Assembly: GCA_044359535.1 (NCBI GenBank)
Contig: JBIKLZ010000001.1
Location: 1 to 64,000 of the forward strand
Source of the DNA: Chlamydiia bacterium
GTDB lineage: Bacteria; Chlamydiota; Chlamydiia; Chlamydiales; 2-12-FULL-49-11
Reading direction: 5' to 3'
Length of the DNA: 64,000 bases
The notes under the pieces are model-generated. The model did no database searches and had not been told where the DNA came from. It saw only the letters and a program-made list of their open reading frames with translations. Position numbers and translations under genes: made by a program. Positions 8,242 through 52,063 of this stretch are shown here, piece after piece. The stretch's first letter is position 1; each line of letters opens with the position of its first letter.

Positions 8242-8342
8242 AATAGTCTCCTTTAGCAAATAGGATAACATGACAGGGGGGTTCCTTGCAAGGGGCTCAT
8301 ATTCTTATTTCACTATTTACACCCCTATGCTACCCTTTGAAC

Positions 8343-12057: not shown

Positions 12058-12660
12058 ATGGGTGAAAAAAAATGCAATGACAAAGAGATGGCAGCGCCTA
12101 CTATAGACAGTAAAATTGAAGAGATGTTGATCTCTCAAAGGAAGATTTTTCTCTCAGCAGCAGTAGATGAAAAATCAGCAAAAGAGGTGATTACAAAGGC
12201 TTGGTACCTTGATTATATCGATCCAAAAAAACCTATTTTACTTGTGATTAACTCCCCAGGGGGGTCGGTAGATTCTGGTTTTGCTATTTGGGATCAATTC
12301 AAAATGCTCTCTTGTCCTATCTATACCCTTGTCACAGGACTTGCAGCTTCCATGGGCTCAATTTTGATGCTTGTTGCAGATAAAGGACATCGATATGTCT
12401 CTTCCCACTCAAGAATTATGATTCATCAACCTTTGATTGGGGGCTATATTCAGGGTCAAGCTACAGACTTAGAAATTCAAGCAAAAGAAATTATCAAGAC
12501 AAAAGAGGGCTTGATTCGCATTTATGAGGAGCACACAGGTAAGGCAAAAGAAAAAATTGCTGAAGCTCTTGATAGAGACACATGGATGTCAGCTGCTGAG
12601 GCAAAAGCTTTTGGACTTTGTGATCACATTGTCAGTTCCTATTCAGAAATTAAGATGTAA
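12058..12660 (+). CDS. clpP: ATP-dependent Clp protease proteolytic subunit (ClpP1 type)
   Basis: INSPGG, GLAASMG, RIMIHQP; follows glyA as in Chlamydia. Confidence 0.96.
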   Translation: MGEKKCNDKEMAAPTIDSKIEEMLISQRKIFLSAAVDEKSAKEVITKAWYLDYIDPKKPILLVINSPGGSVDSGFAIWDQFKMLSCPIYTLVTGLAASMGSILMLVADKGHRYVSSHSRIMIHQPLIGGYIQGQATDLEIQAKEIIKTKEGLIRIYEEHTGKAKEKIAEALDRDTWMSAAEAKAFGLCDHIVSSYSEIKM

Positions 12661-34484: not shown

Positions 34485-34730
34485 TTATTGAGTTCTTTGG
34501 TTACTGATTGTCTTATTTATAACAGTTTGTATTTGAGCAAGTAAGTTAGAAATCGAGGATCCAATCTGGGTCACTTGACTCATTGCATATTGTAGGAGCA
34601 AAAATCTTCCAGGAGTTGCAGTAGAAATTCTTGATGCAACTTTTCGAACCATACTCATTACCTGACTTTGCAAATGCACATATTTATTAATTAATGTGCT
34701 AAATGTTACTGATCCCCATTGACTTGTCAT
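34485..34730 (-). CDS. cdsF: T3SS needle subunit CdsF/SctF
   Basis: 81 aa helical hairpin between cdsE and cdsG; FLLLQYAMSQVTQIGSSISNLL pattern. Confidence 0.82.
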   Translation of the reverse strand: MTSQWGSVTFSTLINKYVHLQSQVMSMVRKVASRISTATPGRFLLLQYAMSQVTQIGSSISNLLAQIQTVINKTISNQRTQ

Positions 34731-35038: not shown

Positions 35039-36748
35039 TTATTCATTGAAGTCAATTTTATATTTTATCCCCCCCTGTTGAAGGAGGATTTGATTATTAG
35101 AAATAGAACTTATAATCATCCCATCTAACGTATCGTTAACACCTAAGATTTTTCCATTGATAAGGACAAATTGATTTGCATTGCCAAATTTTGAAGAACC
35201 TGTGACCTGATATTTACTTGTGATATCAATTGCAGAAGAACTTTTTGTCGTAAAAAGGACAAAATTTTGAACAACCCTGATCCCTTGAACATGCAAGATC
35301 TCTTCAACAAGTTGAGTGAATGTCTCTTTATCGGCCTCATCGGCTCTTCCAGATAGGATAAGTTGACCGTTTGTTTGCTGTATTACAACATTTGCAAACC
35401 CTTTATCTAACAACATCGATTCAATATGAGCATTTAAAGAGTCTTGAGCAACCACTTGATTCTGAAGAAGATTGAGGTAATCAAAATAGTTATTGATAAA
35501 ATCTGTTAAAGAGGCCCTTTCTTCTTCAGTTTGAATATAGCCGGTTAAAAGAAACTCTCCAGGATCTCTTGCAGTCATTAAAACCGATTGCCATTGAGGG
35601 TTTTTTGAAAGTAAGGCGTTGATATTGCTACATACAATTGAGTCAATGATGACGTTATCATCAATTGTACCAATATAGGGGATGTTTTTTAAACGGTAGG
35701 AAAGTTCACTGTAGCTGATTTCATTAAGAACATGGCCAGTTAGAAATAGGGTGGAGGTTGTTTTATTGTAGTTAAACTCTACTGCTTGAAAATGGGAAAC
35801 AGCACTTTGTATCTGCATAGATTCATCCACAGAGGGAGGTTCTACAGAAGAGCTCCTAAATAAGGCAAGCATACTGATAATCCCTATGCATATAAAGGCA
35901 GAAAATACCGAGGCAAGGGCTAAATGTTTTGTAGGGATAAAGGTATCTTTCCAATGAGGGGGCTTTTCTTCTTTTTTTTCTTCAGAAAAAATAGAGTCTT
36001 CAGAAGGAAAAGGGGTTGAAATCCCTGGAGAGTAGATTGTCTCCCTTGTTTGATCCATATCAAGGAAAAGAATCGAGGTGTTTCCAAGATGAATTTGATC
36101 AAAAGGGTGTAAAACTCTGTCTGAGGCAATTTTTTTTCCTTGAACAAAGACCCCATTTCGACTTTGTAAATCAATAAGAGCCACCTCTCCAGAAGAAGAT
36201 AGGGTAATTCTTGCATGGGCTTTTGAGACACTTAAATCATGAAGTAGAATATCGGAGTGCTCACTATCTGAACCTATGACGTAGCTTTCTCCCTCAACTA
36301 AGGGGAATGTTGCCCCGGTTGCCGATCCATTCATCACTTTAAGGACCCATTTTGAGGGGGTGTGGCTTTTTGTGAAGTGGCCTAATGTTAAAGGGGCTGA
36401 AGGCTCTTGTTTAGAAAAGGCAAGCTCTTCTTGCTGTTGCTTTTCTGGAAGAGAAAGGGAAAATCTAAAAGTGTTGTTCCCTATTTGAATTAAGTCATCC
36501 TCAGTAAGGGGGGTTTTTTCCTCTATTGGGGACTCATTTAAAAGAGCTGGGTTTGTAGAGCTTTCATTTTGTATAAAATAGGTGTCGTTTTCAAAAAATA
36601 TCGAAAGGTGCTTTCGAGAGACCATAGGGTCTTGTAAAACAAAGGTACAGACATCTTTATCTCGACCAATTGTCCAATGGTTTCCTTCATCAAATGTAAA
36701 CACCCACTCACCAAGTGGACCATCTTCACATATTAGAAAGCCTTTCAT
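35039..36748 (-). CDS. cdsD: T3SS inner-membrane ring protein CdsD/SctD with two FHA domains
   Basis: FHA1 (IGRD...SRKH...STNP), FHA2 (IGSD...SKAH...SRNG), one TM segment, periplasmic BON-like domains. Confidence 0.93.
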   Translation of the reverse strand: MKGFLICEDGPLGEWVFTFDEGNHWTIGRDKDVCTFVLQDPMVSRKHLSIFFENDTYFIQNESSTNPALLNESPIEEKTPLTEDDLIQIGNNTFRFSLSLPEKQQQEELAFSKQEPSAPLTLGHFTKSHTPSKWVLKVMNGSATGATFPLVEGESYVIGSDSEHSDILLHDLSVSKAHARITLSSSGEVALIDLQSRNGVFVQGKKIASDRVLHPFDQIHLGNTSILFLDMDQTRETIYSPGISTPFPSEDSIFSEEKKEEKPPHWKDTFIPTKHLALASVFSAFICIGIISMLALFRSSSVEPPSVDESMQIQSAVSHFQAVEFNYNKTTSTLFLTGHVLNEISYSELSYRLKNIPYIGTIDDNVIIDSIVCSNINALLSKNPQWQSVLMTARDPGEFLLTGYIQTEEERASLTDFINNYFDYLNLLQNQVVAQDSLNAHIESMLLDKGFANVVIQQTNGQLILSGRADEADKETFTQLVEEILHVQGIRVVQNFVLFTTKSSSAIDITSKYQVTGSSKFGNANQFVLINGKILGVNDTLDGMIISSISNNQILLQQGGIKYKIDFNE

Positions 36749-36865: not shown

Positions 36866-37276
36866 TTATTTGTCTAGCCGAATTTTATTGTTAACTTCCT
36901 TTTTCCAATAGGAAAGATAATTAACAAATTCTTCTACCCAATCGAAAAACATTTTATAATTTACTTCATAAGCGATGAGGGTAGACAGTGTCAAGAACTT
37001 CTCATCAGGATCGATACTTATTACAGAATTACCTGTTCCTTGACCCAAATAGTTAGCCTGTGAAAGATAGATGTAGAAATCCTCGACATTTTTTATCTCC
37101 TTTTCATTAAAAGGAGAGATGTTTGAAGAGATAAAAATAAAAGAGTGTTCCTCCTCAAAAGACAGTTCGCTCCCATCATTTATTGTGAGGAAATATTTTT
37201 TTTTAGTTCCATGTTCTTCTGTAACTAAAGGGATGTTGAGTTGCTTTTCTAACTGTTTAATAAAGGATTCAAGCAT
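36866..37276 (-). CDS. scc4: Class I T3SS chaperone Scc4 (CT663, CesT family)
   Basis: 136 aa, acidic; ANYLGQGTG and EEFVNYLSYW; upstream of cdsD. Confidence 0.88.
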   Translation of the reverse strand: MLESFIKQLEKQLNIPLVTEEHGTKKKYFLTINDGSELSFEEEHSFIFISSNISPFNEKEIKNVEDFYIYLSQANYLGQGTGNSVISIDPDEKFLTLSTLIAYEVNYKMFFDWVEEFVNYLSYWKKEVNNKIRLDK

Positions 37277-37296: not shown

Positions 37297-37731
37297 TTAT
37301 GATTTTAGCCAAGGAGATTGTCCCCTTTTAGAACGTTTTCTTTTTATCCGCCCTTTTGTTGTCTTAAGGGGATCTTCAGTTTTTTTAGAAGAAAGCTTTT
37401 CTTTATCCCTTTTAGCCGAAGATTTAGCAGTTTGGAGCATCTCCCATTGCTCCTTTGTGAAGTTGCTTTCATCTAAGGATAAAGCATTGATCTCTTCAGG
37501 GGTTAACGAAAGTTGTTCTTGAGAAAGTTTTTTTTCGTAGGAAATTTTTTCTTTTAAAAGGGCCATTTTTTCATTAATAGACTTTTTTTCTGTCTCATCG
37601 CCTTTATTTTGGATGTACTTGTATTTTTCTATAAACGACATGGTTAAGTGAAAAATTTCATCAATGCGCTGTTCTTTGTCCTCTGACTCTAAAGAAAATA
37701 GATCAATGAGTGTACTAAAATCATCCTTCAT
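37297..37731 (-). CDS. Hypothetical helical protein with a basic C-terminal tail
   Basis: 144 aa ORF co-oriented with scc4; tail KRKRSKRGQSPWLKS. Confidence 0.75.
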   Translation of the reverse strand: MKDDFSTLIDLFSLESEDKEQRIDEIFHLTMSFIEKYKYIQNKGDETEKKSINEKMALLKEKISYEKKLSQEQLSLTPEEINALSLDESNFTKEQWEMLQTAKSSAKRDKEKLSSKKTEDPLKTTKGRIKRKRSKRGQSPWLKS

Positions 37732-37827
37732 GACTTTGAATATAGTTATTTATTTTTAGAAGGGAAGTTTTTTTATTGAATCTTAAGATAAGAATTGTTC
37801 AATTACAAGAAAAGAGAGGAAGAGGGT

Positions 37828-38241
37828 ATGAATCAACTTGAAGAAATAGAGGATGAAATCTTTGAGACAATGGATCTTATGATACAAGCTTACAAAATGT
37901 TTAATGAGGTTTTAAAGCAGGATCATTTTGCTCATAAGGCTATAGCTGCCTCATTAATGGATCAAATAAGTAGACAATTTAAAATAGATGTTAGGGAAAA
38001 AGAGGAAAAGATTGCCTCTATTAGAGATCACTTTGGAAGCGATGCTTTGATAAGTGACGAAGAAGCAAAACTAAAAGAAGAAAAATTTAAATCTTTTACC
38101 TTTAAAGTTGAAGAGTATGAAAAGATGATGGAAATGACTGCAAAAAACCTAAAAAAGCACTTTCCATTAAATAATAGAGCTCAAGAATTTAAAAAGAAAA
38201 GAAATAGACTAAGAAAAATGAGATCTAAAGGGAGAAAATAA
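37828..38241 (+). CDS. Hypothetical helical protein with a basic C-terminal tail
   Basis: ATG at 37828 with GAGGG RBS; charged helical sequence; tail KKKRNRLRKMRSKGRK. Confidence 0.72.
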   Translation: MNQLEEIEDEIFETMDLMIQAYKMFNEVLKQDHFAHKAIAASLMDQISRQFKIDVREKEEKIASIRDHFGSDALISDEEAKLKEEKFKSFTFKVEEYEKMMEMTAKNLKKHFPLNNRAQEFKKKRNRLRKMRSKGRK

Positions 38242-38610
38242 GTGTTAGACGAATTAAAAAGAACCATAGAGGCCTTTAAAGAGATCCTTAAAATGAACCT
38301 TCAGGCAAAAGAGCCTTCACATTCAGCGATCATGTTGTGGCTAATTAGGGTGTTTTCGGTGGCCAATGGCTTATTGCAACACGCAGCCACATTAGAGGAT
38401 AAAGGGAAAATTTTTGACCTTATGAAGGGGATGCACCCTTTTTTAGAATCCAATAGAGAGGTCATTAAAAGGAAATTAAAAAATGAAGATATCAAAAATC
38501 CTCAGGAAATTGTGGTTACAATGATCAGTTTTGAAAAACAGACAAGATTGTACTCAAAATTTTTACGGGCAGCAAATAGAGAAAAAGAACGAAAAGTAGT
38601 AAATCAGTAA
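38242..38610 (+). CDS. Hypothetical protein, 122 aa (possible chaperone)
   Basis: GTG start immediately after the previous stop, with GGGAG upstream; amphipathic helices. Confidence 0.65.
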   Translation: MLDELKRTIEAFKEILKMNLQAKEPSHSAIMLWLIRVFSVANGLLQHAATLEDKGKIFDLMKGMHPFLESNREVIKRKLKNEDIKNPQEIVVTMISFEKQTRLYSKFLRAANREKERKVVNQ

Positions 38611-38652
38611 AAGTAAAAGGGTTATTTTAAGGTAAATAAAAGGAGTAAAGCA

Positions 38653-39690
38653 ATGTCAGATCCAGTAACAGGAAACCAAGGGCAAGATCCAACAGATCCA
38701 ACAGATCCTTACTCAACAGCGGGGATGGCTCAGCAAATAATGCAACAAATTGATCAAATTATTGACGATTTAAAAAAGCACCCTGCCGATATGACCCAAG
38801 CAATCAATGAAGTATTTAATAAAATGCAACAGCTTCAGGGGAACCTTGTGGGGCAATCTTCTGAAACGCAATCAGCAATGACAGTAGCTACAAACGGTAT
38901 TGCAAACTTACAAGCCTATGGAGCTGATAAGGATGGGACCCCTGTCCAAGATATTAATGTCTATACAGGTTTACCGGAAGTAAATGCAGATGGATCAAAA
39001 AAGATGGTCTCTCCAGAAAAAGCCTTTCAAGATGAGTCTACTTTTTTACTGAATAATCCAAATACTCAATATCAATTAGATTCAAGTGGAAAAGCCATTC
39101 AAGCTGTTGGAGCTGATGGAAAACCGATGTTTGATAAAGATGGCAATCCTGTCTTTGAAAAAAATAAGCTCTATACATTTATGCATACAAAAGGAAATGA
39201 GGCAGTTGCAGAACAACTTAAATCTGCTGTGGAAGGATCGATCACCTCACTTTCAGATAAAAATTGCCCTGCAACGTTTTCTGGGGACTCTGGATATACA
39301 ATAGACCCAAAAACAGGGCAGGTAGAGCTTGATGATAAAGGAAACCCTAAAGGAGAGCAAGTCTCTATTACTCAACCGGGTACAGATAGTAAAGGGAATC
39401 CAACTTTAGGGTCTATCGGGAACATGTGGAATAAAGCTGAGCCGGGAACCGATACATCAGGGGGGTCAACAACCCCTAAAACTCCTGATTCTTCGATTTT
39501 AAATGCCTTTCAAAGTGCCATGGGGACCTTAGGGCAAGCTGGAACGGCCTCTTCATCGACCTTGCAAGCCTTTATAAAAGTCTTAACCGATAATTTTACC
39601 GGTTCCCAAGGAAACTTAAACAATGCCCTCAATAAATCGATCTCGTTACTGACAGCAATGGTGAATAATTCTCGACCTGGAGGAGGTTAA
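38653..39690 (+). CDS. Candidate T3SS needle-tip (LcrV-like) or other secreted structural protein
   Basis: AAGGAG RBS; disordered N-terminus, helical termini, central DxxGxP hairpin repeats; C-terminal helix LTDNFTGSQGNLNNALNKSISLLTAMVNN. The ORF is secure; the function is inferred. Confidence 0.5.
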   Translation: MSDPVTGNQGQDPTDPTDPYSTAGMAQQIMQQIDQIIDDLKKHPADMTQAINEVFNKMQQLQGNLVGQSSETQSAMTVATNGIANLQAYGADKDGTPVQDINVYTGLPEVNADGSKKMVSPEKAFQDESTFLLNNPNTQYQLDSSGKAIQAVGADGKPMFDKDGNPVFEKNKLYTFMHTKGNEAVAEQLKSAVEGSITSLSDKNCPATFSGDSGYTIDPKTGQVELDDKGNPKGEQVSITQPGTDSKGNPTLGSIGNMWNKAEPGTDTSGGSTTPKTPDSSILNAFQSAMGTLGQAGTASSSTLQAFIKVLTDNFTGSQGNLNNALNKSISLLTAMVNNSRPGGG

Positions 39691-39747
39691 GTCTTTGCTT
39701 ATCTCTTTGATAATAAATGCGATAGCAAAAAAAGTCTTAATAATATC

Positions 39748-39776
39748 TTGATTTTTTAAGGAAAAACAGGTAAAAT
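39748..39776 (+). promoter_or_regulatory. Putative sigma66 promoter for the 39819-43814 genes
   Basis: TTGATT-17 nt-TAAAAT. Confidence 0.55.
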
Positions 39777-39818
39777 AAAGGTAGGGAAAAAGAACTTTAA
39801 TAAAATAAGGATAAAAAA

Positions 39819-40835
39819 ATGGATTTAGAAGATATACCTAATAATGATCAAAATAGTGTTTCTAATGAGATTGAAAGACAAAAGATTGAGGCAGAACTTA
39901 ACGCTATCAATCACGATAGTGGGGGAAAAACGGTAGATCCAAAAAAGGGATTAGCTGCCGTTATGACAGGATTAGATGCTGTAACTAAAGAGGCTTCTTC
40001 TAAAGAATCAGCCGGGCAGGGTTCAGCAACTGAGGATACTTCGAGTAACCCTTATGCAAGCGATTCTGATTCTGATTCTGGTTCTTACTATGTAACAGAT
40101 CCTTTGGTAGCCTCAATTCTTGCGGGGGTAACAAACCTTACTTCTAAAACAGAACTGATGAAAGCCACCTCTGATATGCAAGAAAAGCTCTCTGATTTAA
40201 CAACAAAGGTAGCACAATCAGGACGTGATTGGATGCAAAACTTTTATCAATATGGACTTGTAGCTTCTGATGGTTCTGCATCAATGGGCTCTTATGATGC
40301 GGGCACCGCCCATAAGCCTGGAGATGTGTCTGTAGTGGATTTTAAAATTGCGAATGGAAAAATTTCCATGAGTATTAATGGAGGGGTGACTTGGGAAACC
40401 CTAGGTCCAGATAGTTTAATTGAGGGGACACCTTCGGATACTTTAATAGCTGCAGCATTTCCTAACTATACCACAAGTGGATTGAATTCTGGCGAGCTTG
40501 CGTACTTATCACAACAATTTTATGATGCAGGGTTTAAAACAGCACAAGGTCCGGTTCAATTTCAAGGGATTCTTATAAATAATGGAACAACCGAAGGGGG
40601 GGGGACAGGTCTTCAAGCAGCATCTAGTGGAGATATGCAAGCTTTAATGAGTCAGTGGTCATATGTTCAACAAACTGCAAACAGTAATAATCAAACCATT
40701 CAAACAACCTCTAATTTACCTACAGCGATGCAATCAAACACAAACTCAGATATTGGTAATAGTACTCAAAGTCGGCAAGGTGTTGAAGGATGTTTGGATA
40801 GTACAGCAAATTTAATTACAGGTTGGACAAGGTAG
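39819..40835 (+). CDS. Putative T3SS-secreted protein, paralogue A (Asp-box-like motif)
   Basis: Ser/Thr/Gln/Asn/Gly-rich; motif-level identity to 40845..41774; SINGGVTW. Confidence 0.65.
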   Translation: MDLEDIPNNDQNSVSNEIERQKIEAELNAINHDSGGKTVDPKKGLAAVMTGLDAVTKEASSKESAGQGSATEDTSSNPYASDSDSDSGSYYVTDPLVASILAGVTNLTSKTELMKATSDMQEKLSDLTTKVAQSGRDWMQNFYQYGLVASDGSASMGSYDAGTAHKPGDVSVVDFKIANGKISMSINGGVTWETLGPDSLIEGTPSDTLIAAAFPNYTTSGLNSGELAYLSQQFYDAGFKTAQGPVQFQGILINNGTTEGGGTGLQAASSGDMQALMSQWSYVQQTANSNNQTIQTTSNLPTAMQSNTNSDIGNSTQSRQGVEGCLDSTANLITGWTR

Positions 40836-40844
40836 GGGGTCTTT

Positions 40845-41774
40845 ATGAGTGATAATTTAGGTATAAACTCCGATGGAGTGAATAATAGTGTTCCTTCTCA
40901 AGATGTCGATTCTACAAAAAAATCTTTAAAAGGGGTCGATCCGAAAGTAGCCCATGCAGCCGTTGTTTCAGGGTTAGAAAACGCAATTGATACAGCACAG
41001 TCAGAAAGCAAGACTTCCCATGCAATGCCTGCCCTTATGGCAGTGATTGAGGCATCGCAAAAATCTCAAGATGCAGGGAATGAAATTATTACAAGTCTCT
41101 CATCCATGGCAAATCAGATCGTGGAAGTGACCACAAAAGCCACTACTGAAGGGGTGCAGTGGGCCAATAACTACTATAATTATGGACTTTCTACCGCCCA
41201 ATCTGACCCTTCACAAGGGATTGGTCAATGGTCTAAAGGGACAGATCTTCCGGCAGGACCGATCACAGTAAATATGAAAATTGAGGGGGGAAACTACTAC
41301 ATGAGTATTGATGGGGGAAAAACCTACAAAAATATTGGGGCTATTATGCGTGGAGATGATGGATTTGTAGCTCCCCCTCCTCAATCTGAAATTGATGCTG
41401 CCTTCCCTGGGTATACATGGCCTACAGATCCAAAACTTGTGAATGAAAATAAGGCAAGCACATACTGGCATTCTGGAACAGGATGTCAGGGGGATGATCA
41501 AGTTTTCACAATGACTATTGAGGCTCCCGATAGAACCACAGGGGGGACAGGGATTGCTGGTGGAGCTCCTGATGACATGAATGATAAGTTAAATCAGTAC
41601 TCTTATATACAAAATGTTAATAGTGAAGTAAATACTGCAAATCAAACCCTTTCAGCCCTTCCAGGGGCTCTTGAAAATACCATTGTCACTTCAATCAATC
41701 AAGGGAACAGCAATGCAAAAGATATCCTTAACGCCCAAGATCAGCTTGGGAATATGATACAAAACGCAGGGTAA
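40845..41774 (+). CDS. Putative T3SS-secreted protein, paralogue B (Asp-box motif)
   Basis: Shares VDPK..AAV..GL, W..N.Y.YGL, MSI.GG.T, AAFP.YT, GGTG and Q.SY.Q with 39819..40835. Confidence 0.65.
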   Translation: MSDNLGINSDGVNNSVPSQDVDSTKKSLKGVDPKVAHAAVVSGLENAIDTAQSESKTSHAMPALMAVIEASQKSQDAGNEIITSLSSMANQIVEVTTKATTEGVQWANNYYNYGLSTAQSDPSQGIGQWSKGTDLPAGPITVNMKIEGGNYYMSIDGGKTYKNIGAIMRGDDGFVAPPPQSEIDAAFPGYTWPTDPKLVNENKASTYWHSGTGCQGDDQVFTMTIEAPDRTTGGTGIAGGAPDDMNDKLNQYSYIQNVNSEVNTANQTLSALPGALENTIVTSINQGNSNAKDILNAQDQLGNMIQNAG

Positions 41775-41795
41775 TTAAACAAGGGAGGAGGGGCT

Positions 41796-43814
41796 ATGGG
41801 TGATGATAAAATACAAAGAGCAGATAACGTAGGTGAAGACGCTTACGTATATAACGACCTTGTTCAAGATGGGGTGGAAAAGAATAAAAAAAAGACAAAC
41901 GCCCTTCTTTCGGGGTTAGAGCAGGTTGTGATGGGATCAATGGAAGAAAGTGAAGGGAAAACGCCATCAAAAGCTCTAAAGCTCCTTCAAAAGGACCCAG
42001 TACAATTTGCCGATCTTTTCAAAAGTTCAAATAAAACCGATCAAGATGAGGCTTTTAAAGCTATTGGAGCCTATGTAGCTTCTACAAAAGGGAGCGACAC
42101 AAAAAATTTAAGGGTTATGCTACAAGAGCTGATCAAGGGGACCCCTCAAGAAAAGAAGGGGGCTGAATTTGTTAAAATTGCTGAAGAGATGTTTGATACA
42201 TTTGCTAAAGGGGTGGATACAGGTCAGGTTTCTTTAGATGAGGCTTGTTGCTCCCAACAAATTCAAGCATTTTCTTTAGAGCTGATGAATACAAAGCATG
42301 GGGAAACCTCTACAGGGATAAAAAATGCATTAACCTCCCTTTTTCAAGGGAAAAAGATTGACGATGATTTTGTTGGAAAAGTGGTCGATCTTTCTGTTAA
42401 AGCCTCTGTGAGCAAGACAAAAGAAGGGGATGACATTATAAAAACCCTTACTTCAAATCAGGGTATAAAAGCGTTATATAATGCTAAAGGGGGGGATCCA
42501 TCGATAGATTCATTGTCTAAAACAGTGCCTTCTTCAAATGTCGGTGGTTCCTATGTGAACGCAATGATGTCGCTAGCGGCAGCCTTAGTAGCCCTTTTAG
42601 CAAATGTGTGTAATGCAGAAACCTCAGCAAGTGATATTGGGTCAAAAATTTCTCAAAAGCAAGGGGAAAATGCTGAATCGATTGCAAAAAATAATATCAA
42701 TGCCCTTCAAACTCAGTTGCAGGCTCAAGCCGATGCAAGCAAGCAACCTTGGTATATGTATTTAATTGCCGGTGTTTTAGCTCTTGCCGGTGCTGTGGCA
42801 ACATTTTTTACAGCAGGAGCGGCCGGTGCTGCTGTTGCTTTAATCATTGGGGCAGTTATGGCTTCACCAGCTGGAAGTAGTATCACTGGAGGGTTATCAA
42901 AAGCCTTAGGGGGAGATAATGCCGGTCCTGGGGCTCAGGCGGGAGCCACTGCAATTGTTGCTGCAATCACAACCATTTTGAGCTTAGGGGCGGGAGGGTT
43001 TACTTCTGCAACAGAGGCAGCTGAAACAGGTCTTGAACAAGGGGTAGATGCTGCAGGGGATGCTGCAGGGGCAGCTGCTAAGGGTGGAGGACAAGTTGCT
43101 GAGGATGCAACAGCAGCAGCCCAGGTGGGTGATGAGGCAGCAGATGCTTCAGGAAATGAGGCTGAGGAGACGGTAAGCAAGATATCCAAACTTACTGAGA
43201 AAATTAAAAAGGGTTTTAATCAGAAGTGGGATAACGGAGCTTTTACAAAAGGGATTGTTAAGAGGGGAATAGGGACCTATCTTCAAGGGTTTTTAGGTAC
43301 TGGGGGACTAACAGAGTCTGCTGAAGCAATTGCTACTGCTGTAAAGCCAGATATTCTTAATGATAGTAACTGGGCTCTTGCCATTGCTATTACCGGGGCA
43401 GTCATCTCTTTTGCTGGAGGGCTTGTTTCTGCTACTAAATTAACGGGTGCTGGGGTTGAAGAAAGGGCTAACTATTTATCACAGAAAGATCTTGTGGATA
43501 GCATTTTAAAATATACAAAGCCAATAGAAGTATCTGTAAGGGTAATAGAGGCCTCTGGAGCTTTAGCTCAAGGGGGGCTTAATATTGACCAAGGGTTTCA
43601 AGAGATGCATGTCTCTGATTTACAAAGACAAACAGCGTTAACACAGTCTGCATTAGAAATGCAGAAATCTGTTCAACAACAGGCTTTAAATTCTAATAGC
43701 GATATAAATAAGGCCTACACAGATATGGTGGATAATGTAAATAAAGCTGTTAATGAGGCAGAAGGGGCCATTGGGGTAGAGGAGCAAAATACAAAAAAGG
43801 CAATTTCTAAATAG
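41796..43814 (+). CDS. Major T3SS translocator, CopB/YopB/SseC-like (SctE)
   Basis: Coiled coil followed by a long Ala/Gly-rich hydrophobic region (WYMYLIAGVLALAGAVATFFTAGAAGAAVALIIGAVMA...), and a C-terminal coiled coil. Confidence 0.78.
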   Translation: MGDDKIQRADNVGEDAYVYNDLVQDGVEKNKKKTNALLSGLEQVVMGSMEESEGKTPSKALKLLQKDPVQFADLFKSSNKTDQDEAFKAIGAYVASTKGSDTKNLRVMLQELIKGTPQEKKGAEFVKIAEEMFDTFAKGVDTGQVSLDEACCSQQIQAFSLELMNTKHGETSTGIKNALTSLFQGKKIDDDFVGKVVDLSVKASVSKTKEGDDIIKTLTSNQGIKALYNAKGGDPSIDSLSKTVPSSNVGGSYVNAMMSLAAALVALLANVCNAETSASDIGSKISQKQGENAESIAKNNINALQTQLQAQADASKQPWYMYLIAGVLALAGAVATFFTAGAAGAAVALIIGAVMASPAGSSITGGLSKALGGDNAGPGAQAGATAIVAAITTILSLGAGGFTSATEAAETGLEQGVDAAGDAAGAAAKGGGQVAEDATAAAQVGDEAADASGNEAEETVSKISKLTEKIKKGFNQKWDNGAFTKGIVKRGIGTYLQGFLGTGGLTESAEAIATAVKPDILNDSNWALAIAITGAVISFAGGLVSATKLTGAGVEERANYLSQKDLVDSILKYTKPIEVSVRVIEASGALAQGGLNIDQGFQEMHVSDLQRQTALTQSALEMQKSVQQQALNSNSDINKAYTDMVDNVNKAVNEAEGAIGVEEQNTKKAISK

Positions 43815-43830
43815 GAATAAATAATAATAG

Positions 43831-43859
43831 TTGAAAATCAATAATAAATATGTTATAAT
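43831..43859 (+). promoter_or_regulatory. Near-consensus sigma66 promoter for the CopD-like gene
   Basis: TTGAAA-17 nt-TATAAT with a TG extended -10 element. Confidence 0.65.
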
Positions 43860-43902
43860 TATATTAGGGAATAATGTAGTTGTTATAAAAAAGGGGTAAA
43901 AT

Positions 43903-45111
43903 ATGTCTTCAACAAATCAAGTAAACGGGTCCGTTCAGCCAAATCCAAATGATCCAACACAAGGGGGATCAGATACTGTGGACAACAAAAAAATTGCAGC
44001 AAAGCTTCAAGGGATCTCTGCTGCTATGGGTTCAGTAAATGATCAAGGGACAACAGGGGGTCAAACTACTGGGGGGACTGAGAATGTATCGATCAACGGA
44101 CAAGTGTACGTTATAGATTATATCCCATTTAAAGCCTTTTTAGAGCAGCTAAAACAGCGTCTTGAGCAGACGTTGACAAGTATTGATATTCAAAAGATGC
44201 AAGTAGCCTCATACATTGGAGACACAGTCAATCAAGATGGGTCGGTCTCTACATCAAGTAATGGAGGGATTATGGGGCAAATTTGTGCAGCAATTATTGC
44301 TGGAGGGGATGCTCAAGCCCAACAAACAATGAATCAGTCGATACAGAGTTTATCTCAAGCAGGAACTCAAATTGCTGGAGGGATATTTGTTGAAGCTGCC
44401 CAAGGGAATTCTAAAAAAGAACAAGATACAGTAGACAAAACGCAAAATGCCATCGATGCGTTAGATAAAATTCCTGCTCAAGGAACTAAAGATCCAAATA
44501 CTCAAACAAGAACAAACAATAATAACCAAACACTGTCTGATGAAGATAGTGAATCTCTAGAAAGTGCAATTAATGATTTAAAAAATGGAACATTGGATTT
44601 TTCTAAGGAAGACACAACATTTGGATCAAAGGTTGTGAAAGATCAAAAAAACAAAACTACAATTCAAAAACAAACACAAGCCGAACTTGAGGGTGATCAA
44701 ACTAAAGTCAATGGAGAAAACGACGACTCACCTACAGTATATGAGACATTGCTAAATTCAACCCCAGAGGAAAAACAACAAATTAAAACGGCGCTGACAA
44801 AACAACTTAATAAGGCAAAAGATAAACTGGAAAAAAAACAAGAAACAAATAGAAATACAAGGGAGAGCTATCGAAGGATTGTTGAAGCTGCAGGAATGGC
44901 TACTGGGGGAGGGGTGACGATGCTTAATGCTGCAGCAACCAGAGAAAAAGCTAGCCAAGATGCCGCTCAAACTCAGGCTCAAAGTGTGGATTCTACTGCA
45001 AAATCAATGATGAGTACAAACGATGCAAGCACAACCGATAGACGAGCAGATATTAAGTCAACCTTGGATGCTTTACAGTCTCTTATTGATGCAGTCAATA
45101 GAAGGACATAA
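43903..45111 (+). CDS. Minor T3SS translocator, CopD/YopD-like (SctB)
   Basis: Directly after the CopB-like gene; AAIIAGGDAQAQQTMNQSIQSLSQAGTQIAGGIFV segment, coiled coil, amphipathic C-terminal helix IKSTLDALQSL. Confidence 0.68.
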   Translation: MSSTNQVNGSVQPNPNDPTQGGSDTVDNKKIAAKLQGISAAMGSVNDQGTTGGQTTGGTENVSINGQVYVIDYIPFKAFLEQLKQRLEQTLTSIDIQKMQVASYIGDTVNQDGSVSTSSNGGIMGQICAAIIAGGDAQAQQTMNQSIQSLSQAGTQIAGGIFVEAAQGNSKKEQDTVDKTQNAIDALDKIPAQGTKDPNTQTRTNNNNQTLSDEDSESLESAINDLKNGTLDFSKEDTTFGSKVVKDQKNKTTIQKQTQAELEGDQTKVNGENDDSPTVYETLLNSTPEEKQQIKTALTKQLNKAKDKLEKKQETNRNTRESYRRIVEAAGMATGGGVTMLNAAATREKASQDAAQTQAQSVDSTAKSMMSTNDASTTDRRADIKSTLDALQSLIDAVNRRT

Positions 45112-45120
45112 GGTCGATTT

Positions 45121-45157
45121 AAAAAGGCGCTAGGGATGTTCCTGGCGCTTTTTTTTA
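45121..45157. terminator. Bidirectional intrinsic terminator between the CopD-like gene and clpX
   Basis: AAAAAGGCGCTAGG-loop-CCTGGCGCTTTTTTTT hairpin between convergent genes. Confidence 0.8.
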
Positions 45158-46390
45158 TGAAGTTTTTTCCTTTGCCACTCTATGAATAATAGGGGGGCTT
45201 TTTCCTTCTATACATCCTTTATCAATGATGATTTCAGAGACCTCGTCATCAGAAGGGACCTCGTACATCAAATCAATTAAGGTGTTTTCAACAATCATTT
45301 TCAAAGCACGTGCACCGGTCCCTGCTTCTTTAGCTTTGACAGCAATGGACTCAAGGGCCTCATCGGTAAAGGAGAGGGACACATTGTCTTCAGCAAAGAG
45401 ATTTTTATACTGCTCAATGATAGAATTTTTTGGCTTTGTTAAAATTTCCATTAGATCATGGATAGAAAGCTCATTACAGCTTGCTATGGAGTTAAAACGT
45501 CCCACAAATTCTGGGATAAGGCCATATTTGACAAGGTCTCCTGTTTCAACTTTTGAAAGGAGGTAATTAAGTTCATTGATATCAAAATGTTTGTTTGCAG
45601 GATTTTCTTCAAAGCCAATAGTTCCCTTTCCAAGACGCTTTGAAATAATTCCAGGGAGGTGGACAAAAGCCCCACCGACGATGAATAAGATATTTTCTGT
45701 GTTTACTTTGATATACTCTTGATTTGGGTGCTTTCTCCCCCCTTTTGGAGGAACGTTTGCAATAGTCCCTTCAACAATTTTTAAAAGAGCTTGCTGAACC
45801 CCTTCCCCAGAGACATCTCGTGTGATAGAGACATTAGATGTGGTCTTTCCAATTTTGTCAATTTCATCGACATAAATAATCCCTTGTTCAGCTCGAGCAA
45901 TATCGTAGTCAGCATTTTGAACAAGTCTTAAGATGATGTTTTCAACATCCTCCCCAACATAGCCAGCTTCTGTAAGGGTTGTTGCATCCACAATTGCAAA
46001 AGGGACGTCGATAGAATCAGCTAAAATCCGAGCAAGCAAGGTTTTTCCAGATCCTGTGGGGCCTAAAAGAAGGACGTTAGATTTTGTATAAGAAGGGGAC
46101 CCCTCTTTATGATGAGCGCGGATCCTTTTATAGTGGTTGTAGACAGCGACAGCAAGGGTCTTTTTTGCAACAGATTGGCCAATGATATGTTGATTGAGTT
46201 TATCGACAATTTCTTTAGGTTTTAAACATTTCATCTCATGTTTTGTCGTTTTTTTTGAAATGATATCGACACAAAGGCGGACACATTTATCGCAAATGTA
46301 TGCATTGGGGCCAGATATTAATTTTTCAACACTATCTTCTGGCCTAGAACAAAAGGAACATTTTGCATTTTCTTCGTTACTTCCCGACAT
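45155..46390 (-). CDS. clpX: ATP-dependent Clp protease ATP-binding subunit ClpX
   Basis: CSFC...CDKC zinc domain, [28 protein letters not shown]. Confidence 0.98.
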
Positions 46391-46994
46391 GTTTTTCCTC
46401 TACTGGGGTACTATTTTGAAGGCCGATGACTGTATCGATGAGCCCATAAGCTTTTGCCTCTTGAGCGCTCATGTAGTAATCTCTATCAGAATCTTTATGA
46501 ATTTGCTCAGGGGTTTGTCCTGTATTGCGAGATAAAATATTTGTTAAACTGTGCTTGAGGTAGAGGATCTCTTTTGCTTGAAGCTCGATGTCAGCAGAGG
46601 TCCCACCGACAGCTCCAGCGGGTTGATGGATCATAATTCTGCTATTTGGGAGGGCAAAACGCTTCCCAGGAGTTCCGCTAGAAAGCAATACCGCAGCCAT
46701 CGAGGCAGCCATCCCTATGCAGTAAGTATAGACATCACACTCTAAATATTTCATCGTATCGTAAATAGCAAGCCCTGCAGATATGACCCCTCCAGGAGAG
46801 TTGATGTAAATGCTGATAGGCTTTTTTGGATCTGTGGCTCTAAGATAGATGAGTTGAGAAATAATATGATTTGCAAGGGTATCATTGATTTCTTCCCCAA
46901 TAAAAATGATCCGATCCTGCAAGAGTCTCGACATAATATCCATGGTTTTATCACCACGAGCGGTTTCTTCTACTACGTAAAGGGGGTATGCCAT
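46377..46994 (-). CDS. clpP: Clp protease proteolytic subunit (ClpP2 type)
   Basis: [31 protein letters not shown]; lies in the tig-clpP-clpX operon. Confidence 0.97.
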
Positions 46995-48592: not shown

Positions 48593-51500
48593 TTAATCGT
48601 TTGTCTTAAGAAGGTCAAGAACATCTTCCCAAGTAAGCTTTGAAATGACATCTTCATCTGTACTAACAATCTTTTTAACAACGCCCATTTTCTTTTTCTG
48701 CATCGCAACAATTTTTTCTTCAATGGTGTCTAAAGTGATGAGCTTATAGACAGAGACATTTTGCTTTTGCCCCATTCGGTGGACCCTGTCGGTGGCTTGA
48801 TTTTCAACAGCTGGATTCCACCACATATCGTAATGGATGACTGTGTCTGCCCCTGTTAAGTTTAAACCTGTCCCTCCAGCTTTTAAAGAGACAAGGAAAA
48901 TAGGGTTATCCCCCTCATTAAATTCTTTAACAATGCCCATTCTGTTTTTTGAGGCCCCATCAAGGTAGGAGTATTTAATCCCTGCAGCATCGAATTGATC
49001 GCGCATGATTTTGAGCATCTTTGTGTATTGAGAGAATATGACTGTTTTATGCCCCCCAGTAATCAGGGTGTCTAAAAGCTCTAAAAGGAGATCAAATTTG
49101 GATGAATCCCCAGTTTCGCCCTCTTCAGTAGCAAAAATAGCAGGATGACAACAAATTTGTTTAAGGCGGGTTAAGGTTGCAAGAACGTGGATTTGTACTT
49201 TATCAAAGCCATCCCTTTCAACAAGTTTTGTAAGTTCATCTTTTGCTGATGTAGCATAGGAATTGTAGAGTTCTTTTTGAGATTTAGAAAGTCTGCTGTG
49301 GTAGATAATTTCTGAAACAGGGGGCAAATCATCCAGGACGTCGCTTTTCATACGGCGTAAAATAAAGGGAGCCACTTTTTTCTTAAGGTATTCAAGATTC
49401 TTTTTAAGCTCCTCATTTTTTGGACGGACATATTTTTCTAGGAATCGATCATAGGTGTTTAAGAAGTTTGGCATCAGGTAGTCAAAAAGACTCCACAGCT
49501 CGTCTAAAGAATTTTCAATTGGGGTTCCAGATAGGATTAATTTATAATTTGAGGAGAGCATTTTTACAGATTTTGCGTTTCGAGTGCTTCTGTTTTTGAT
49601 ATGTTGAGCCTCATCTAAAATGCAATAGTGAAAAGGTGCGTTTTCATAAAGCTCAATATCTTTTTGTAACAGACTATAGGAAGTAATGATGGCATCGTAG
49701 TCTGAAATCTGAGAGATAAGCTTTTTCCGTTGAGCGGGAATTCCATCAATGACTAAAGTTTTGAAGTTTGTGTTAAATTTATGGAATTCTTCTTTCCAGT
49801 TATAGAGCAATGAGGTAGGACAGATAATGATAGAAGGGGGCGTTGTCGCTGTTTTACTTTGGGATAAAGTGACAATGGTTTGAAGGGTTTTTCCAAGTCC
49901 CATATCATCGGCAAGAATCCCTCCAAGGTACATATTTCGAAGTCTTTCTAGGTAGTTAACCCCCTCAATTTGGTAAGGGCGCAAGGTAGCTTTAATATCT
50001 GATGGGATAGGGGAGGATGAAAGTTGTTTTTCACCTAACATTTGAGATCGAATTTCTTTTAATCTCTCTGACATTGAAAAAGTTACAGGAAGATCTACAA
50101 AGTTTTCAGCATCAATGTTTGCTATTGTCCAAATAGGGGCGGTAAGGGTGTGATTATCCAACTTTTTAATCCCTAGTTCATCAAAGAGATAGACAATTTT
50201 TGAAAGAAGTTTTAGGTTTAAGACTAAAATTTTATTCATTTTAGGGGAAGAGTCTTTTGCCCCCCCTTTCTTTTTATAGCTAAGTTCAAGGTAAGCTCGT
50301 CTAGAAAGGATGCAATCCCAGAGGCTATCCATACGGATCCCTTCAAGACTTCCATCGACCTCAACTTTTAATTCGAAGCTGTCTAAGCGTTGAGTGTGAG
50401 ACAATGTGAGGGTAAAACAGGAGTTGTCGTAGATAAACTGATCGAGTAAATTTTGAGGGCAATTAAATGTGATAAGATGTTTATACTCTGGCAATCTTTC
50501 TGTCATAAATTCGACAATCTTTTTTTCACTTTTAGCGACAAATGCCCCTTGCTCTTTTTCGTAGACAAAATCTAAAAAAAGGTTGTCAATGATTTGTTTT
50601 TCTTCAAAAAGGTTTCTTGCTAGGAGGCCAGAATCCTTTTGAAAAAGTTCTAAATGGTCTATTGTGAGGGCATCTGGGGATGCAGGAATGGGGATATCGT
50701 TGTAAATAAATTCTAAAACAGCCTCTAGTTCACCATCTAAATAGGAGATATTGCACGTCCCTTTAAGGGCATGGACATAAGGGAGGGTGGTAAACTGATT
50801 GAAAATATCTTTTCCTGAAATGGAGGTATAGGAGGCAAGTCTTCCTAGGCCATTTTCGATAAAAGTACCAAAAAGGGGTTTGCAAATAGTGATTTCCCTC
50901 ATCGAATTTAAGTGGATAAGATGTTGTCTTGTGATTGAAGGGCCAAATTTAAAGAAGGTGTTTTCATGGATAAAGGAGGGTGAGGCACATTCAAAAAAGA
51001 GGGCGTCTTCTAAAAGGATCGATTTTTCCCCTGCTAAAATAGTGGGGTTGAGTAAAATTTTTGAGGCAGGGGGTTTTATATACTCTAAGTTCATATTAAA
51101 GGAGGATAAAATTGGGGAGTAGTATAATGGGGTATCTAAAGTATCAATATAAATCCCTGGAAGTTCATGGGTAATAGAGCTGTTTTTAGCACCCGAAGGG
51201 AGGGTTGCATAAGCAGCAAGAAAGCATTTTGAAAGAAGTAATCCTAAGGATTTTGTCTCAATATAGGCGCACTTTTGCCCTTTTTCTGTCGTTGCCTTAT
51301 CATGAACTCTTGCATAATCAATAAGCATACGAACAATGTCTCTAGATTCTTCCGGAAATGATTCTGGGGTAAAAAGGTATTTTTTCCCCCCAATTTGCAA
51401 CGGTTCTTCATAACGAATTCCATCTAAGAAACTTTTTGCATTCGGGATATGAAGAGGTTTTGATCGAGAAGGGAGGCGCAAAGCAAATTGAAGTTCAACA

Positions 51501-52063
51501 ATGGCTTTAGAGCCATCTTTTGTTTCCGGAAAGCTGTATACAATCATGATCGATGCAGGGGTCACTTCAATTTCTTTCTTTTGAGAAAAAAATGGAGATG
51601 TCGATAGGATTTTAGAGGCAAGAATATACTCTTGCATGAGCTCTTTTTGAAACTCAACATCCTTTCTTTTTTCCTCTTTTGAAACTGCATCTTTCACTAC
51701 TTCTAAAAGTTCAATGGCGGCAGGATCTTGATAGGCTACCCCTTCAGAGTCTTTTGAATAGGAGACAAGCATTTTATCAAGGTGAGCTTCTAAGTAAAAA
51801 AGAAGGGCTGCTAAATGTTGACAGTCGTAATGGTAGGGGCAGTCACAATCTGAATCGATAGTTTCACAATCAATGCGATCAATTTCGATTTCACATGCGT
51901 AGCCATTTTCAAATTGACCTTCGACTTTGGCACTAATTCTTAAGGAGGTGGAATCAAGGCTGATAATTTTTGCTGCTGTGACCTTTTTGTCAGTAAATAA
52001 ATCTTTTCCTTCACGCAGAACATTTTGAGAAAAATCTTGCTTTAATTTTCTGACATTTAACAT
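48593..52063 (-). CDS. SWIM zinc finger / SNF2-family helicase (CT708-like)
   Basis: CDCPYHYDCQHLAA; LADDMGLGKT, DEAQ, SGTPIEN, WWNPAVENQATDRVHRMGQ; between tig and mreB as in Chlamydia. Confidence 0.94.
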   Translation of the reverse strand: MLNVRKLKQDFSQNVLREGKDLFTDKKVTAAKIISLDSTSLRISAKVEGQFENGYACEIEIDRIDCETIDSDCDCPYHYDCQHLAALLFYLEAHLDKMLVSYSKDSEGVAYQDPAAIELLEVVKDAVSKEEKRKDVEFQKELMQEYILASKILSTSPFFSQKKEIEVTPASIMIVYSFPETKDGSKAIVELQFALRLPSRSKPLHIPNAKSFLDGIRYEEPLQIGGKKYLFTPESFPEESRDIVRMLIDYARVHDKATTEKGQKCAYIETKSLGLLLSKCFLAAYATLPSGAKNSSITHELPGIYIDTLDTPLYYSPILSSFNMNLEYIKPPASKILLNPTILAGEKSILLEDALFFECASPSFIHENTFFKFGPSITRQHLIHLNSMREITICKPLFGTFIENGLGRLASYTSISGKDIFNQFTTLPYVHALKGTCNISYLDGELEAVLEFIYNDIPIPASPDALTIDHLELFQKDSGLLARNLFEEKQIIDNLFLDFVYEKEQGAFVAKSEKKIVEFMTERLPEYKHLITFNCPQNLLDQFIYDNSCFTLTLSHTQRLDSFELKVEVDGSLEGIRMDSLWDCILSRRAYLELSYKKKGGAKDSSPKMNKILVLNLKLLSKIVYLFDELGIKKLDNHTLTAPIWTIANIDAENFVDLPVTFSMSERLKEIRSQMLGEKQLSSSPIPSDIKATLRPYQIEGVNYLERLRNMYLGGILADDMGLGKTLQTIVTLSQSKTATTPPSIIICPTSLLYNWKEEFHKFNTNFKTLVIDGIPAQRKKLISQISDYDAIITSYSLLQKDIELYENAPFHYCILDEAQHIKNRSTRNAKSVKMLSSNYKLILSGTPIENSLDELWSLFDYLMPNFLNTYDRFLEKYVRPKNEELKKNLEYLKKKVAPFILRRMKSDVLDDLPPVSEIIYHSRLSKSQKELYNSYATSAKDELTKLVERDGFDKVQIHVLATLTRLKQICCHPAIFATEEGETGDSSKFDLLLELLDTLITGGHKTVIFSQYTKMLKIMRDQFDAAGIKYSYLDGASKNRMGIVKEFNEGDNPIFLVSLKAGGTGLNLTGADTVIHYDMWWNPAVENQATDRVHRMGQKQNVSVYKLITLDTIEEKIVAMQKKKMGVVKKIVSTDEDVISKLTWEDVLDLLKTND

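Follow-up and report, generated by a model that had tools for sequence, protein, structure and literature searches.

A probable type III translocon operon beside scc4-sctD in an uncultured freshwater chlamydial genus

The DNA considered here, termed the window, is the first 64,000 nucleotides of contig JBIKLZ010000001.1 (assembly GCA_044359535.1), which comes from an uncultured freshwater chlamydial genus. Its subject is a run of seven plus-strand genes (O1-O7) and a divergent gene upstream of them, Om1, encoding 144 amino acids (aa). Together these genes probably constitute the main translocon operon of the host's type III secretion system (T3SS), in a lineage variant of a module that many chlamydiae outside the Chlamydiaceae keep beside scc4-sctD. 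The protein classes of this module are designated S, T1, T2, E and B, in gene order. A first-pass annotation, made from the sequence alone, had proposed a T3SS translocon module at this site, and profile-profile links that connect O6 with SctE-type proteins and O7 with the class encoded next after SctE support that proposal. Its further suggestion, that the cluster represents a distinct and undescribed system, has been abandoned for reasons given below. The genes discussed are as follows.

Om1, 37297..37731, minus strand: 144-aa S-class protein assigned to the CT635 family (putative type III secretion chaperone)
O1, 37828..38241 (open from TTG 37795), plus strand: helical protein of 137 aa that ends in a strongly basic tail
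O2, 38242..38610, plus strand: 122-aa helical basic protein; its start abuts the O1 stop
O3, 38653..39690, plus strand: 345-aa hydrophilic protein assigned to the T1 class
O4, 39819..40835, plus strand: 338-aa protein with a helical scaffold and an Asp-box repeat insert; paralogue of O5
O5, 40845..41774, plus strand: 309-aa paralogue of O4
O6, 41796..43814, plus strand: 672-aa predicted major translocator, SctE (SseC/YopB/EspD-type)
O7, 43903..45111, plus strand: 402-aa B-class protein, probable minor translocator (SctB-like)
Scc4-like gene, 36866..37276, minus strand: CesT-family chaperone (Pfam CesT E=4.6e-9), first gene of the divergent apparatus operon
sctD (cdsD), 35039..36748, minus strand: inner-membrane ring gene (TIGR02500, 163.7 bits, plus CdsD domains)

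The host genome (1.21 Mb in 57 contigs, 92.6% complete, with the window as its contig C35) was compared with a sample of 200 genomes of the phylum. For the O4/O5 family, the comparison used 400 genomes of the order and a family sample of 8 genomes from the window's genus and 13 from other genera. Pfam and NCBIfam scans of the seven proteins were read down to E<=1, and hydrophobicity is given as the 19-residue Kyte-Doolittle mean. Sequence words of the window are shared by 24 DNA sequencing runs from lakes or other freshwater sources, 12 of them with at least half of the sampled words and 2 of these 12 being possible sources; none of the runs listed as sharing window words is an RNA run.

The predicted translocators O6 and O7

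Relatives of O6 are scarce, and a word-seeded search of 5.8 billion clustered proteins returned two. A profile of O6 and these two relatives gave weak matches in the sister genus and in another family, which occupy the same slot as O6, between scc4-sctD and clpX. The sister-genus protein (515 aa, genome G179) matches Pfam SseC (PF04888) with 41 bits, above the gathering score of 30.2 bits, as do the E proteins of G140 (44.4 bits), G145 (40.5 bits) and G168 (35.4 bits); a gene near sctD in G055 reaches 221.8 bits. Because the genus profile of O6 (seven sequences) aligns with the E class (eight proteins; hhalign 99.6%, E=2.5e-24, 365 columns), and because four of these eight E-class members pass the SseC gathering score, O6 is assigned to the SctE-type major translocators, with the E class as the intermediate link. 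The first-pass annotation had called both genes that close the cluster hydrophobic and CopB- or CopD-like. The word hydrophobic suits O6, which contains four strongly hydrophobic segments (residues 249-278, 318-365, 379-405 and 525-549) and whose central transmembrane hairpin (318-365 and 379-405) is the most conserved part of its alignment, better than it does O7, which is weakly hydrophobic. O6 lies ~5 kb from sctD, and O7 follows it directly.

O7 is connected in a similar manner with the B class, the 300-365-aa proteins encoded next after SctE in other families (hhalign of the O7 genus profile, 97.1%, E=6.2e-11, 252 columns). This alignment and its position suggest that O7 is probably a minor translocator of SctB-like type. 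In a protein language-model comparison (Atlas), the neighbours of O7 were IpaC_SipC, YopD and SctB2 clusters (0.90-0.93, with 179-198 of 256 features in common), and 7 of the 10 best family-bearing matches agreed on SctB families. These neighbours are a lead that fits the position of the gene rather than proof, and the EspB family is also among them. The Pfam and NCBIfam scans gave no match of O7 to YopD (PF05844), IpaC_SipC (PF09599) or SctB2 (PF05802), and no SctB chain was found by the B-class profile in PDB sequences. Profile searches of PDB sequences with alignments A1, A3, A4, A5 and A6 returned coiled-coil or designed-protein noise only.

Distribution of the module in the phylum

Pfam SseC matches were found in 82 of the 200 sampled genomes (61 above the cutoff), and SctD in 198. 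In at least 19 genomes, which span eight chlamydial families (labelled f1, f6, f7, f9, f10, f12, f21 and f27), the contig that carries sctD also has a match to SseC (15 genomes) or to the O6 profile (4 more) at a distance of 1.5-14 kb; this count is a floor, with coordinates read by eye among the 150 sctD matches listed. The full S-T1-T2-E-B layout was read in seven loci of f1, f9, f10 and f21 (L045-L055), and in f1, f10 and f21 the module stands between scc4 and clpX-clpP-tig, exactly as in the window. Comparison of gene neighbourhoods across the chlamydiae, which the first-pass annotation had proposed as a check, confirmed the association with scc4-sctD and removed its uniqueness. The cluster in the window is one lineage's form of a translocon operon that is widespread among chlamydiae but unannotated, and does not amount to a system of its own.

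The Chlamydia-like genomes in the sample differ from this arrangement, and here the earlier account was accurate: their translocator loci include LcrH and are unlinked to the sctD cluster, at a distance of ~100 kb. CopB and CopD gene families have been treated as exclusive to the Chlamydiaceae, with or without its sister family (PMC10448858, in the text available). Neither a T1/T2 module nor translocators linked to sctD were found described in the openly readable text of the literature covered, which included passages of PMC5451489, PMC8242063, PMC9666466, PMC10448858 and PMC3459982.

One f9 locus (L050:6158-16784 in G061, a genome whose database relative is named Simkaniaceae) carries the T1-T2-E-B unit duplicated in tandem. 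The first unit encodes proteins of 226, 135, 1036 and 308 aa and the second of 247, 139, 811 and 337 aa, the E proteins being unusually long.

O3 and the T1 class

The first structural gene of the module encodes T1 proteins of 226-312 aa. By alignment of its genus profile (hhalign 95.1%, E=3.3e-8, 227 columns), O3 is assigned to this class, with which it has in common an N-terminal DPxDPY motif and a C-terminal helix; O3 itself contains an insertion of ~100 aa. Long N- and C-terminal helices were predicted for O3 by AlphaFold2 (AF2) secondary structure. O3 is a candidate secreted tip or adaptor protein.

The description of O3 as LcrV-like, taken from the first-pass annotation, proved to reflect gene position and nothing further. 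O3 matched no entry in Pfam, NCBIfam or PDB. The Pfam LcrV model (PF04792) found nothing in five related genomes, and it matched in no control genome either. Pfam EspA (PF03433) matched none of the seven proteins, and its best value in the five related genomes was E=0.039, at unrelated places. Database relatives of T1 are uninformative, the 4 named among 18 matches all being "hypothetical protein". Atlas look-ups of O3 (0.85-0.86) are a lead only, and a cluster that is 12% LcrV scores 0.85. As single queries over the 200 phylum genomes, O3 returned nothing else, save one weak row, and O5 nothing else.

The O4/O5 paralogues and their relation to T2

O4 and O5 were recognized as novel paralogues in the first-pass annotation, and this is borne out by BLASTP (E=6e-20, 26% identity over 326 aa). 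Their duplication is older than the split from L006, a same-genus contig described below. Exhaustive searching with HMMER yielded 34 proteins at E<=0.001, ~13 of them full-length (300-370 aa); in the full-length relatives the N- and C-terminal helical blocks are kept and the middle is hypervariable. The family is present in all 8 genomes of the window's genus (strongly in 6, as visibly tandem pairs in 4) and in 0 of the 13 genomes from the family's other genera, with one weak match elsewhere among the 400 genomes of the order. O4 and O5 are genus-restricted tandem paralogues.

An AF2 model of O5 (20 sequences) has disordered residues 1-62, a long helix at 63-113, an alpha/beta domain at ~135-235 (predicted local distance difference test, pLDDT, 82-94) and C-terminal helices at 242-308. 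The inserted domain, of ~95-110 aa, bears an Asp-box-like S-x-D-G-G-x-T-Y/W motif. It corresponds to a ~95-aa repeat without a Pfam family (F-K-I-x-N-G-x-Y-Y-M-S-x-D-G ... P-P-S-D-Y-x-I-Q ... H-S-G ... G-D-G), which occurs in 2 to ~10 tandem copies in the chlamydial hypothetical proteins P0011, P0018, P0021 and P0024 and as one copy each in O4 and O5.

In sister lineages, the position directly upstream of SctE that O4 and O5 occupy is held by T2, a protein of 131-171 aa. The only match of the T2 profile in the whole genome is to O5 residues 37-128 (E=0.034), and the C-terminal helices of O4 and O5 align with the T2 C-terminus (E=7e-4 and 2.2e-4). Because these two weak matches jointly span the helical scaffold but leave out the inserted domain, and because the gene position is common to both, it is considered more likely than not that O4 and O5 are T2 proteins that acquired the ~95-aa Asp-box repeat domain and were then duplicated.

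CT635-family proteins and LcrH-type chaperones

Om1 aligns with the S class (hhalign 99.7%), whose members adjoin scc4 in five families and carry an invariant Trp in a C-terminal K-x-K-W-x-K-S motif (alignment A5); the basic tail of Om1 ends K-x-x-W-L-K-S. An S profile with Om1 as its first row found matches in 5 of 5 further genomes (E=4e-14 to 9e-10), including a 144-aa gene between nqrA and greA in the Chlamydia-like genome G009 (E=8.9e-10) and, in G055, a gene of 146 aa that adjoins greA. Within its own genome, Om1 is the only S-class match. The G009 gene is presumably CT635, an identification that combines gene order in Chlamydia with matching length. CT635 and its Protochlamydia homologue are 144 and 146 aa long, the same lengths as the genes of G009 and G055 (PMC1403754, in the text available). 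According to the portion of the source consulted, CT635 is a putative type III secretion chaperone that binds the first 94 residues of the effector CT622, a protein unique to the Chlamydiaceae (PMC5962693). On these profile matches Om1 is placed in the CT635 family.

The neighbouring small proteins are less readily classified. O1, whose last 20 residues have a net charge of +10, is orthologous in L006 and in G250 and was not seen in four other loci of the genus. Its hhalign values against the sister-genus Sb protein (E=0.0044) and against S (E=0.042) are not significant, and O1 is possibly a diverged S-class paralogue. The O2 genus profile aligns with the sister-genus Sc protein (hhalign 36%, E=3.7e-4, 108 columns), and Sc, which ends K-W-I-R-S/T, aligns within the S-class alignment A5. 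O2 is probably the counterpart of Sc, a CT635-like paralogue.

No tetratricopeptide repeat (TPR) or LcrH match was found in O1-O7 or Om1 (Pfam, NCBIfam TIGR02552, E<=1), and hhalign of O1, O2 and T2 against LcrH gave E>=0.097. The first-pass statement that an LcrH chaperone is missing is correct for the cluster but not for the genome, which has LcrH-like genes at C15:7814-8293 (84.2 bits) and C48:10191-10586 (34.8 bits); moreover, a putative chaperone of the CT635 family heads the cluster. In G055 (f6), two true LcrH genes (170 and 153 bits) lie within the sctD-adjacent module. Class-II chaperones such as LcrH bind a hexapeptide, [PV]xLxxP, in their substrates. This hexapeptide occurs in 5 of 6 reference CopB/CopD-type proteins and in the N-terminal parts of 0 of 7 O6-family and 0 of 6 O7-family proteins, and it is likewise absent from the N-terminal parts of the E and B families; the motif is short, which makes it weak evidence.

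A second, compact translocator-like module lies on C15 (6361-8827, minus strand). It encodes, in order, a 177-aa protein, the LcrH-like protein (159 aa), a protein of 306 aa with two transmembrane segments and one of 176 aa with a single hydrophobic segment; an ABC transporter follows, and the module is kept in both sister-genus genomes examined. By hhalign, O6, O7, E and B have no significant match to the proteins of this module or of the G055-type module. On C48 (9724-10586), genes for a 154-aa protein and the 131-aa TPR/LcrH-like protein lie directly upstream of dnaA; the latter may correspond to CT274, the TPR chaperone gene that adjoins dnaA in Chlamydia.

Gene structure and conservation of the locus

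The outline given in the first-pass annotation, seven co-oriented genes pointing away from the scc4-cdsD...cdsC apparatus cluster, is real, and its anatomy is correct as judged from ribosome-binding sites and synteny. A purine-rich ribosome-binding site precedes each of the seven starts, and the intergenic gaps measure 0-128 nucleotides. The start of O1 at 37828 is better than the TTG at 37795, having a ribosome-binding site and an orthologue in L006 that aligns from this position. The divergent minus-strand cluster contains Om1, the CesT/Scc4-like gene, SctD, DUF5398, a needle-sized gene (34485-34730), CdsG (144.7 bits, below the NCBIfam cutoff of 170), SctN, a YscO-like gene, SctQ, a Pkn5-like kinase and the SctC secretin. 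At the other end, O7 is separated by 43 nucleotides from the convergent clpX, which is followed by clpP, tig and an SNF2 helicase gene.

L006, a 15-kb contig of a metagenome-assembled genome (MAG), holds all eight genes including Om1, with their order kept. Amino acid identity to the window is 41-67% for the eight genes vs 92% for ClpX and 91% for ClpP. The proportion of nonsynonymous differences (pN) is 0.22-0.39 and that of synonymous differences (pS) 0.66-0.77, as compared with pN values of 0.054 and 0.068 for clpX and clpP; pS is saturated, which makes a dN/dS ratio unusable. Because of the synteny in L006 and of these pN values in relation to pS and to clpX and clpP, the eight genes are recognized as coding, constrained and fast-evolving. 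Versions of the cluster occur in five further genomes of the same genus (six in all with L006). The L006 record is labelled as a Chlamydia trachomatis MAG, a label that looks wrong; the cluster was not found in any Chlamydia-like genome sampled.

Promoter-like and terminator-like sites are fewer in the region than in shuffled sequence (12 vs 22.3 and 4 vs 7.0, respectively). The best sigma-70-like promoter match (43831-43859, plus strand; TTGAAA, 17 nucleotides, TATAAT, extended TG, 11 of 12 matches) sits in the 88-nucleotide gap before O7 and hints at an internal start.

Several features of the locus vary within the genus and its relatives. Between the O7 homologue and clpX, five contigs have an additional gene, of 453-923 aa (L006:8559-10133, L074:5789-7150, L075:14292-15800, L076:6763-9534 and L078:12337-14448). 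This extra gene belongs to no Pfam family, and the window holds just 43 nucleotides at that place (45111-45155), which may be a variable effector slot. In another member of the genus, G264 (L078:8894-12198), the order of the two genes at the end appears to be reversed, with the O7-like one (409 aa) ahead of the O6-like one (667 aa), and the locus has a single O4/O5-type gene. Om1 (37297-37731) lies opposite to the operon in the window's genus and is co-oriented with it in the sister genus (L045:10170-10658 and L046:6165-6608), a difference that looks like a single-gene inversion. Elsewhere, the window contains two ClpP genes (12058-12660 and 46377-46994), two long SNF2-family helicase genes (14126-17800 and 48593-52063) and a XerC/D-type integrase gene (8286-9260).

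Proposed function and alternative explanations

Under the translocon reading, the hydrophilic proteins O3 and O4/O5 would be exported by the T3SS after completion of the needle and would take a place between needle and pore as tip or adaptor, and O6 and O7 would then enter the host membrane to form the pore. Om1, possibly together with O1 and O2, might keep the substrates in the bacterial cytoplasm, replacing the LcrH that is found at this location in other families. O3, O4 and O5 have polar N-termini without a hydrophobic signal peptide, together with long N- and C-terminal helices. We infer from these properties, in agreement with the first-pass annotation, that they may be secreted structural proteins, and a tip or filament role is plausible for them. 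The Asp-box domain of O4/O5 would sit at the far end of a helical hairpin, which would bring a variable globular domain to the expected site of host contact. A bolder version holds that T1 (O3) and T2 (O4/O5) are the missing tip/adaptor pair of non-Chlamydiaceae injectisomes, T2 having been duplicated with a swappable Asp-box domain to give a modular host-contact tip, and CT635-family chaperones serving instead of LcrH; this version is put forward tentatively and is somewhat doubtful.

A number of results weigh against the translocon reading or against parts of it. None of the seven proteins has a significant direct match in Pfam, NCBIfam or PDB sequences; O6 has no Pfam match at E<=1, and PF04888 matches nothing in the whole genome. 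A check against SctE and SctB profiles, a mismatch in which the first-pass annotation had named as a refutation, was negative for O6 and O7 directly; O6 is linked to SseC through the E class, and for O7 the one positive signal from SctB families is the language-model lead. No significant similarity was detected by hhalign between O6, O7, the E class or the B class and the proteins in CopB and CopD position of the reference genomes. O7 is without a clear transmembrane segment, its best segments reaching 1.03-1.09 vs 1.27-1.71 in its B-class relatives. The connection of O4/O5 with T2 is below significance (26-45% probability; E=0.034). On the structural side, the AF2 model of O3 (10 sequences) was unusable (pLDDT 47, predicted TM-score 0.35) and was kept out of the fold search, and the model of O5 found no significant structural neighbour (best Foldseek E=0.047, none at E<=0.001). 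VIA comparisons of the O5 model reached a best Z of 8.6 (range 7-8.6) with generic helical hairpins, which is noise level. By AF2, O5 is a helical hairpin with a globular insert. A proposed resemblance of the C-termini of O3, O5 and the 177-aa protein of C15 to needle subunits was dropped (hhalign against the needle family, E>=0.03). Foldseek rows for O5 with FlgK, flagellin, MakB and AhlB (E=0.2-1.8, TM-score <0.27) were likewise set aside as the noise expected of helical models.

These gaps leave room for other explanations, of which the most serious concerns O3-O5. They may be translocated effectors, or secreted host-binding proteins, that are co-transcribed with the translocators, in which case O6 and O7 alone would be the translocon and a tip protein, if any, would be encoded elsewhere. 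Effectors are often genus-restricted and fast-evolving, as O4 and O5 are (pN 0.36-0.39). Their central domain is also tandem-arrayed in other chlamydial hypothetical proteins, the variable gene after the operon in genus members indicates that cargo genes do sit here, and O3-O5 lack detectable similarity to LcrV, IpaD and EspA. However, T1 and T2 are fixed directly upstream of SctE in four families, and the f9 duplication copied T1-T2-E-B as a block, as would be expected of functional partners more than of cargo. A variable insert between N- and C-terminal helices is, moreover, the layout of axial and tip proteins, and an effector role is judged unlikely. It is far less probable that the T2 class, and hence O4/O5, consists of cytoplasmic chaperones that replace LcrH upstream of SctE and are not secreted. 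In f6 (G055), and probably in f27 (G145), the SseC-type gene is indeed immediately preceded by an LcrH/TPR gene, T2 is of chaperone size, and none of the O6, O7, E and B families has the class-II chaperone-binding hexapeptide in its N-terminal part. Yet T2 and LcrH do not align (hhalign E=0.93), and the O4/O5 architecture, a ~60-aa disordered polar N-terminus plus a globular repeat insert, would be odd for a chaperone, as would duplication into a rapidly diverging pair.

Paralogous helical proteins beside hydrophobic ones are also seen in multi-component alpha-helical pore-forming toxin operons of the Mak, Ahl or Nhe kind, whose products would leave the cell by another export route than the T3SS. 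Weak Foldseek rows of O5 with MakB, MakE and AhlB (E=0.4-1.8, TM-score <=0.24) point in this direction but are far from significance, and the homology of O6 to proteins that pass Pfam SseC, the tie of the module to scc4-sctD in eight families and the lack of a Sec signal peptide in any of the proteins make a toxin operon extremely improbable. The reading of the cluster as the main translocon operon, in a lineage-specific form, is preferred.

To our knowledge, the identity of the chlamydial needle-tip protein has never been settled. Beside scc4-sctD, many chlamydial families have a five-part module that is conserved but unannotated and includes a predicted pore protein of the SseC family; its T1 and T2 proteins, which are without known relatives, offer concrete tip or adaptor candidates for study in cultured environmental chlamydiae. 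The putative chaperone CT635 can now be tied to a translocon, and O4/O5 probably exemplify the insertion of a domain into a scaffold linked to the T3SS. For the window alone, the result is a moderate one, a lineage variant of the module and not a new secretion system.

Comparison with known systems

Salmonella pathogenicity island 2 (SPI-2) has the gene order sseA-sseB-sscA-sseC-sseD, and operon 4 of the locus of enterocyte effacement (LEE4) in enteropathogenic Escherichia coli (EPEC) has the order espA-espD-espB; SseA and CesAB are small basic helical chaperones without TPR. The window resembles these loci in placing hydrophilic helical proteins directly upstream of a major translocator, followed by a minor one, in the link of the O6 class to Pfam SseC, and in its small basic helical proteins, putative chaperones of non-TPR type. 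It differs in having three hydrophilic genes rather than one, in the Asp-box repeat insert of O4/O5, and in that O3-O5 have no detected sequence or fold similarity to EspA or SseB. The Yersinia order, lcrG-lcrV-lcrH-yopB-yopD, likewise presents a small helical protein and a hydrophilic protein before two translocators, whereas O3 has no LcrV match, the window's cluster has no LcrH, and extra paralogues are present.

In Chlamydia, the translocator loci are scc2-CT577-copB-copD and CT863-scc3-copB2-copD2. As read in G009, they belong to the same phylum and T3SS family and have tandem hydrophobic or amphipathic translocators after small accessory genes. Unlike the window's operon, they include a true LcrH (129-147 bits) at ~100 kb from sctD, and their translocators carry the chaperone-binding hexapeptide in 5 of 6 cases and show no hhalign similarity to O6 or O7. 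At the scc2-type locus of G009, the second translocator gene, in CopD position (L027:5195-6517), matches Pfam SseC with 108 bits and the first, in CopB position (L027:3681-5165), has no match; by this profile, the protein in CopD position is the YopB/SseC-like one, the reverse of what the names suggest. CT635 of Chlamydia trachomatis is comparable to Om1 and the S class, which are small and helical and match the greA-adjacent genes of G009 and G055, but Om1 heads a translocon operon instead of lying beside greA.

The sctD-adjacent module of other families differs from that of the window's genus, where the O4/O5 pair stands in place of a T2-sized gene. The extra small genes O1 and O2 and the inverted Om1 also distinguish the window, the f6 form contains the LcrH that the window's cluster is without, and other members of the genus have the variable gene before clpX. 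Both occupy the same slot beside scc4-sctD, and profile comparison shows homology of O3 to T1, of O6 to E, of O7 to B and of Om1 to S.

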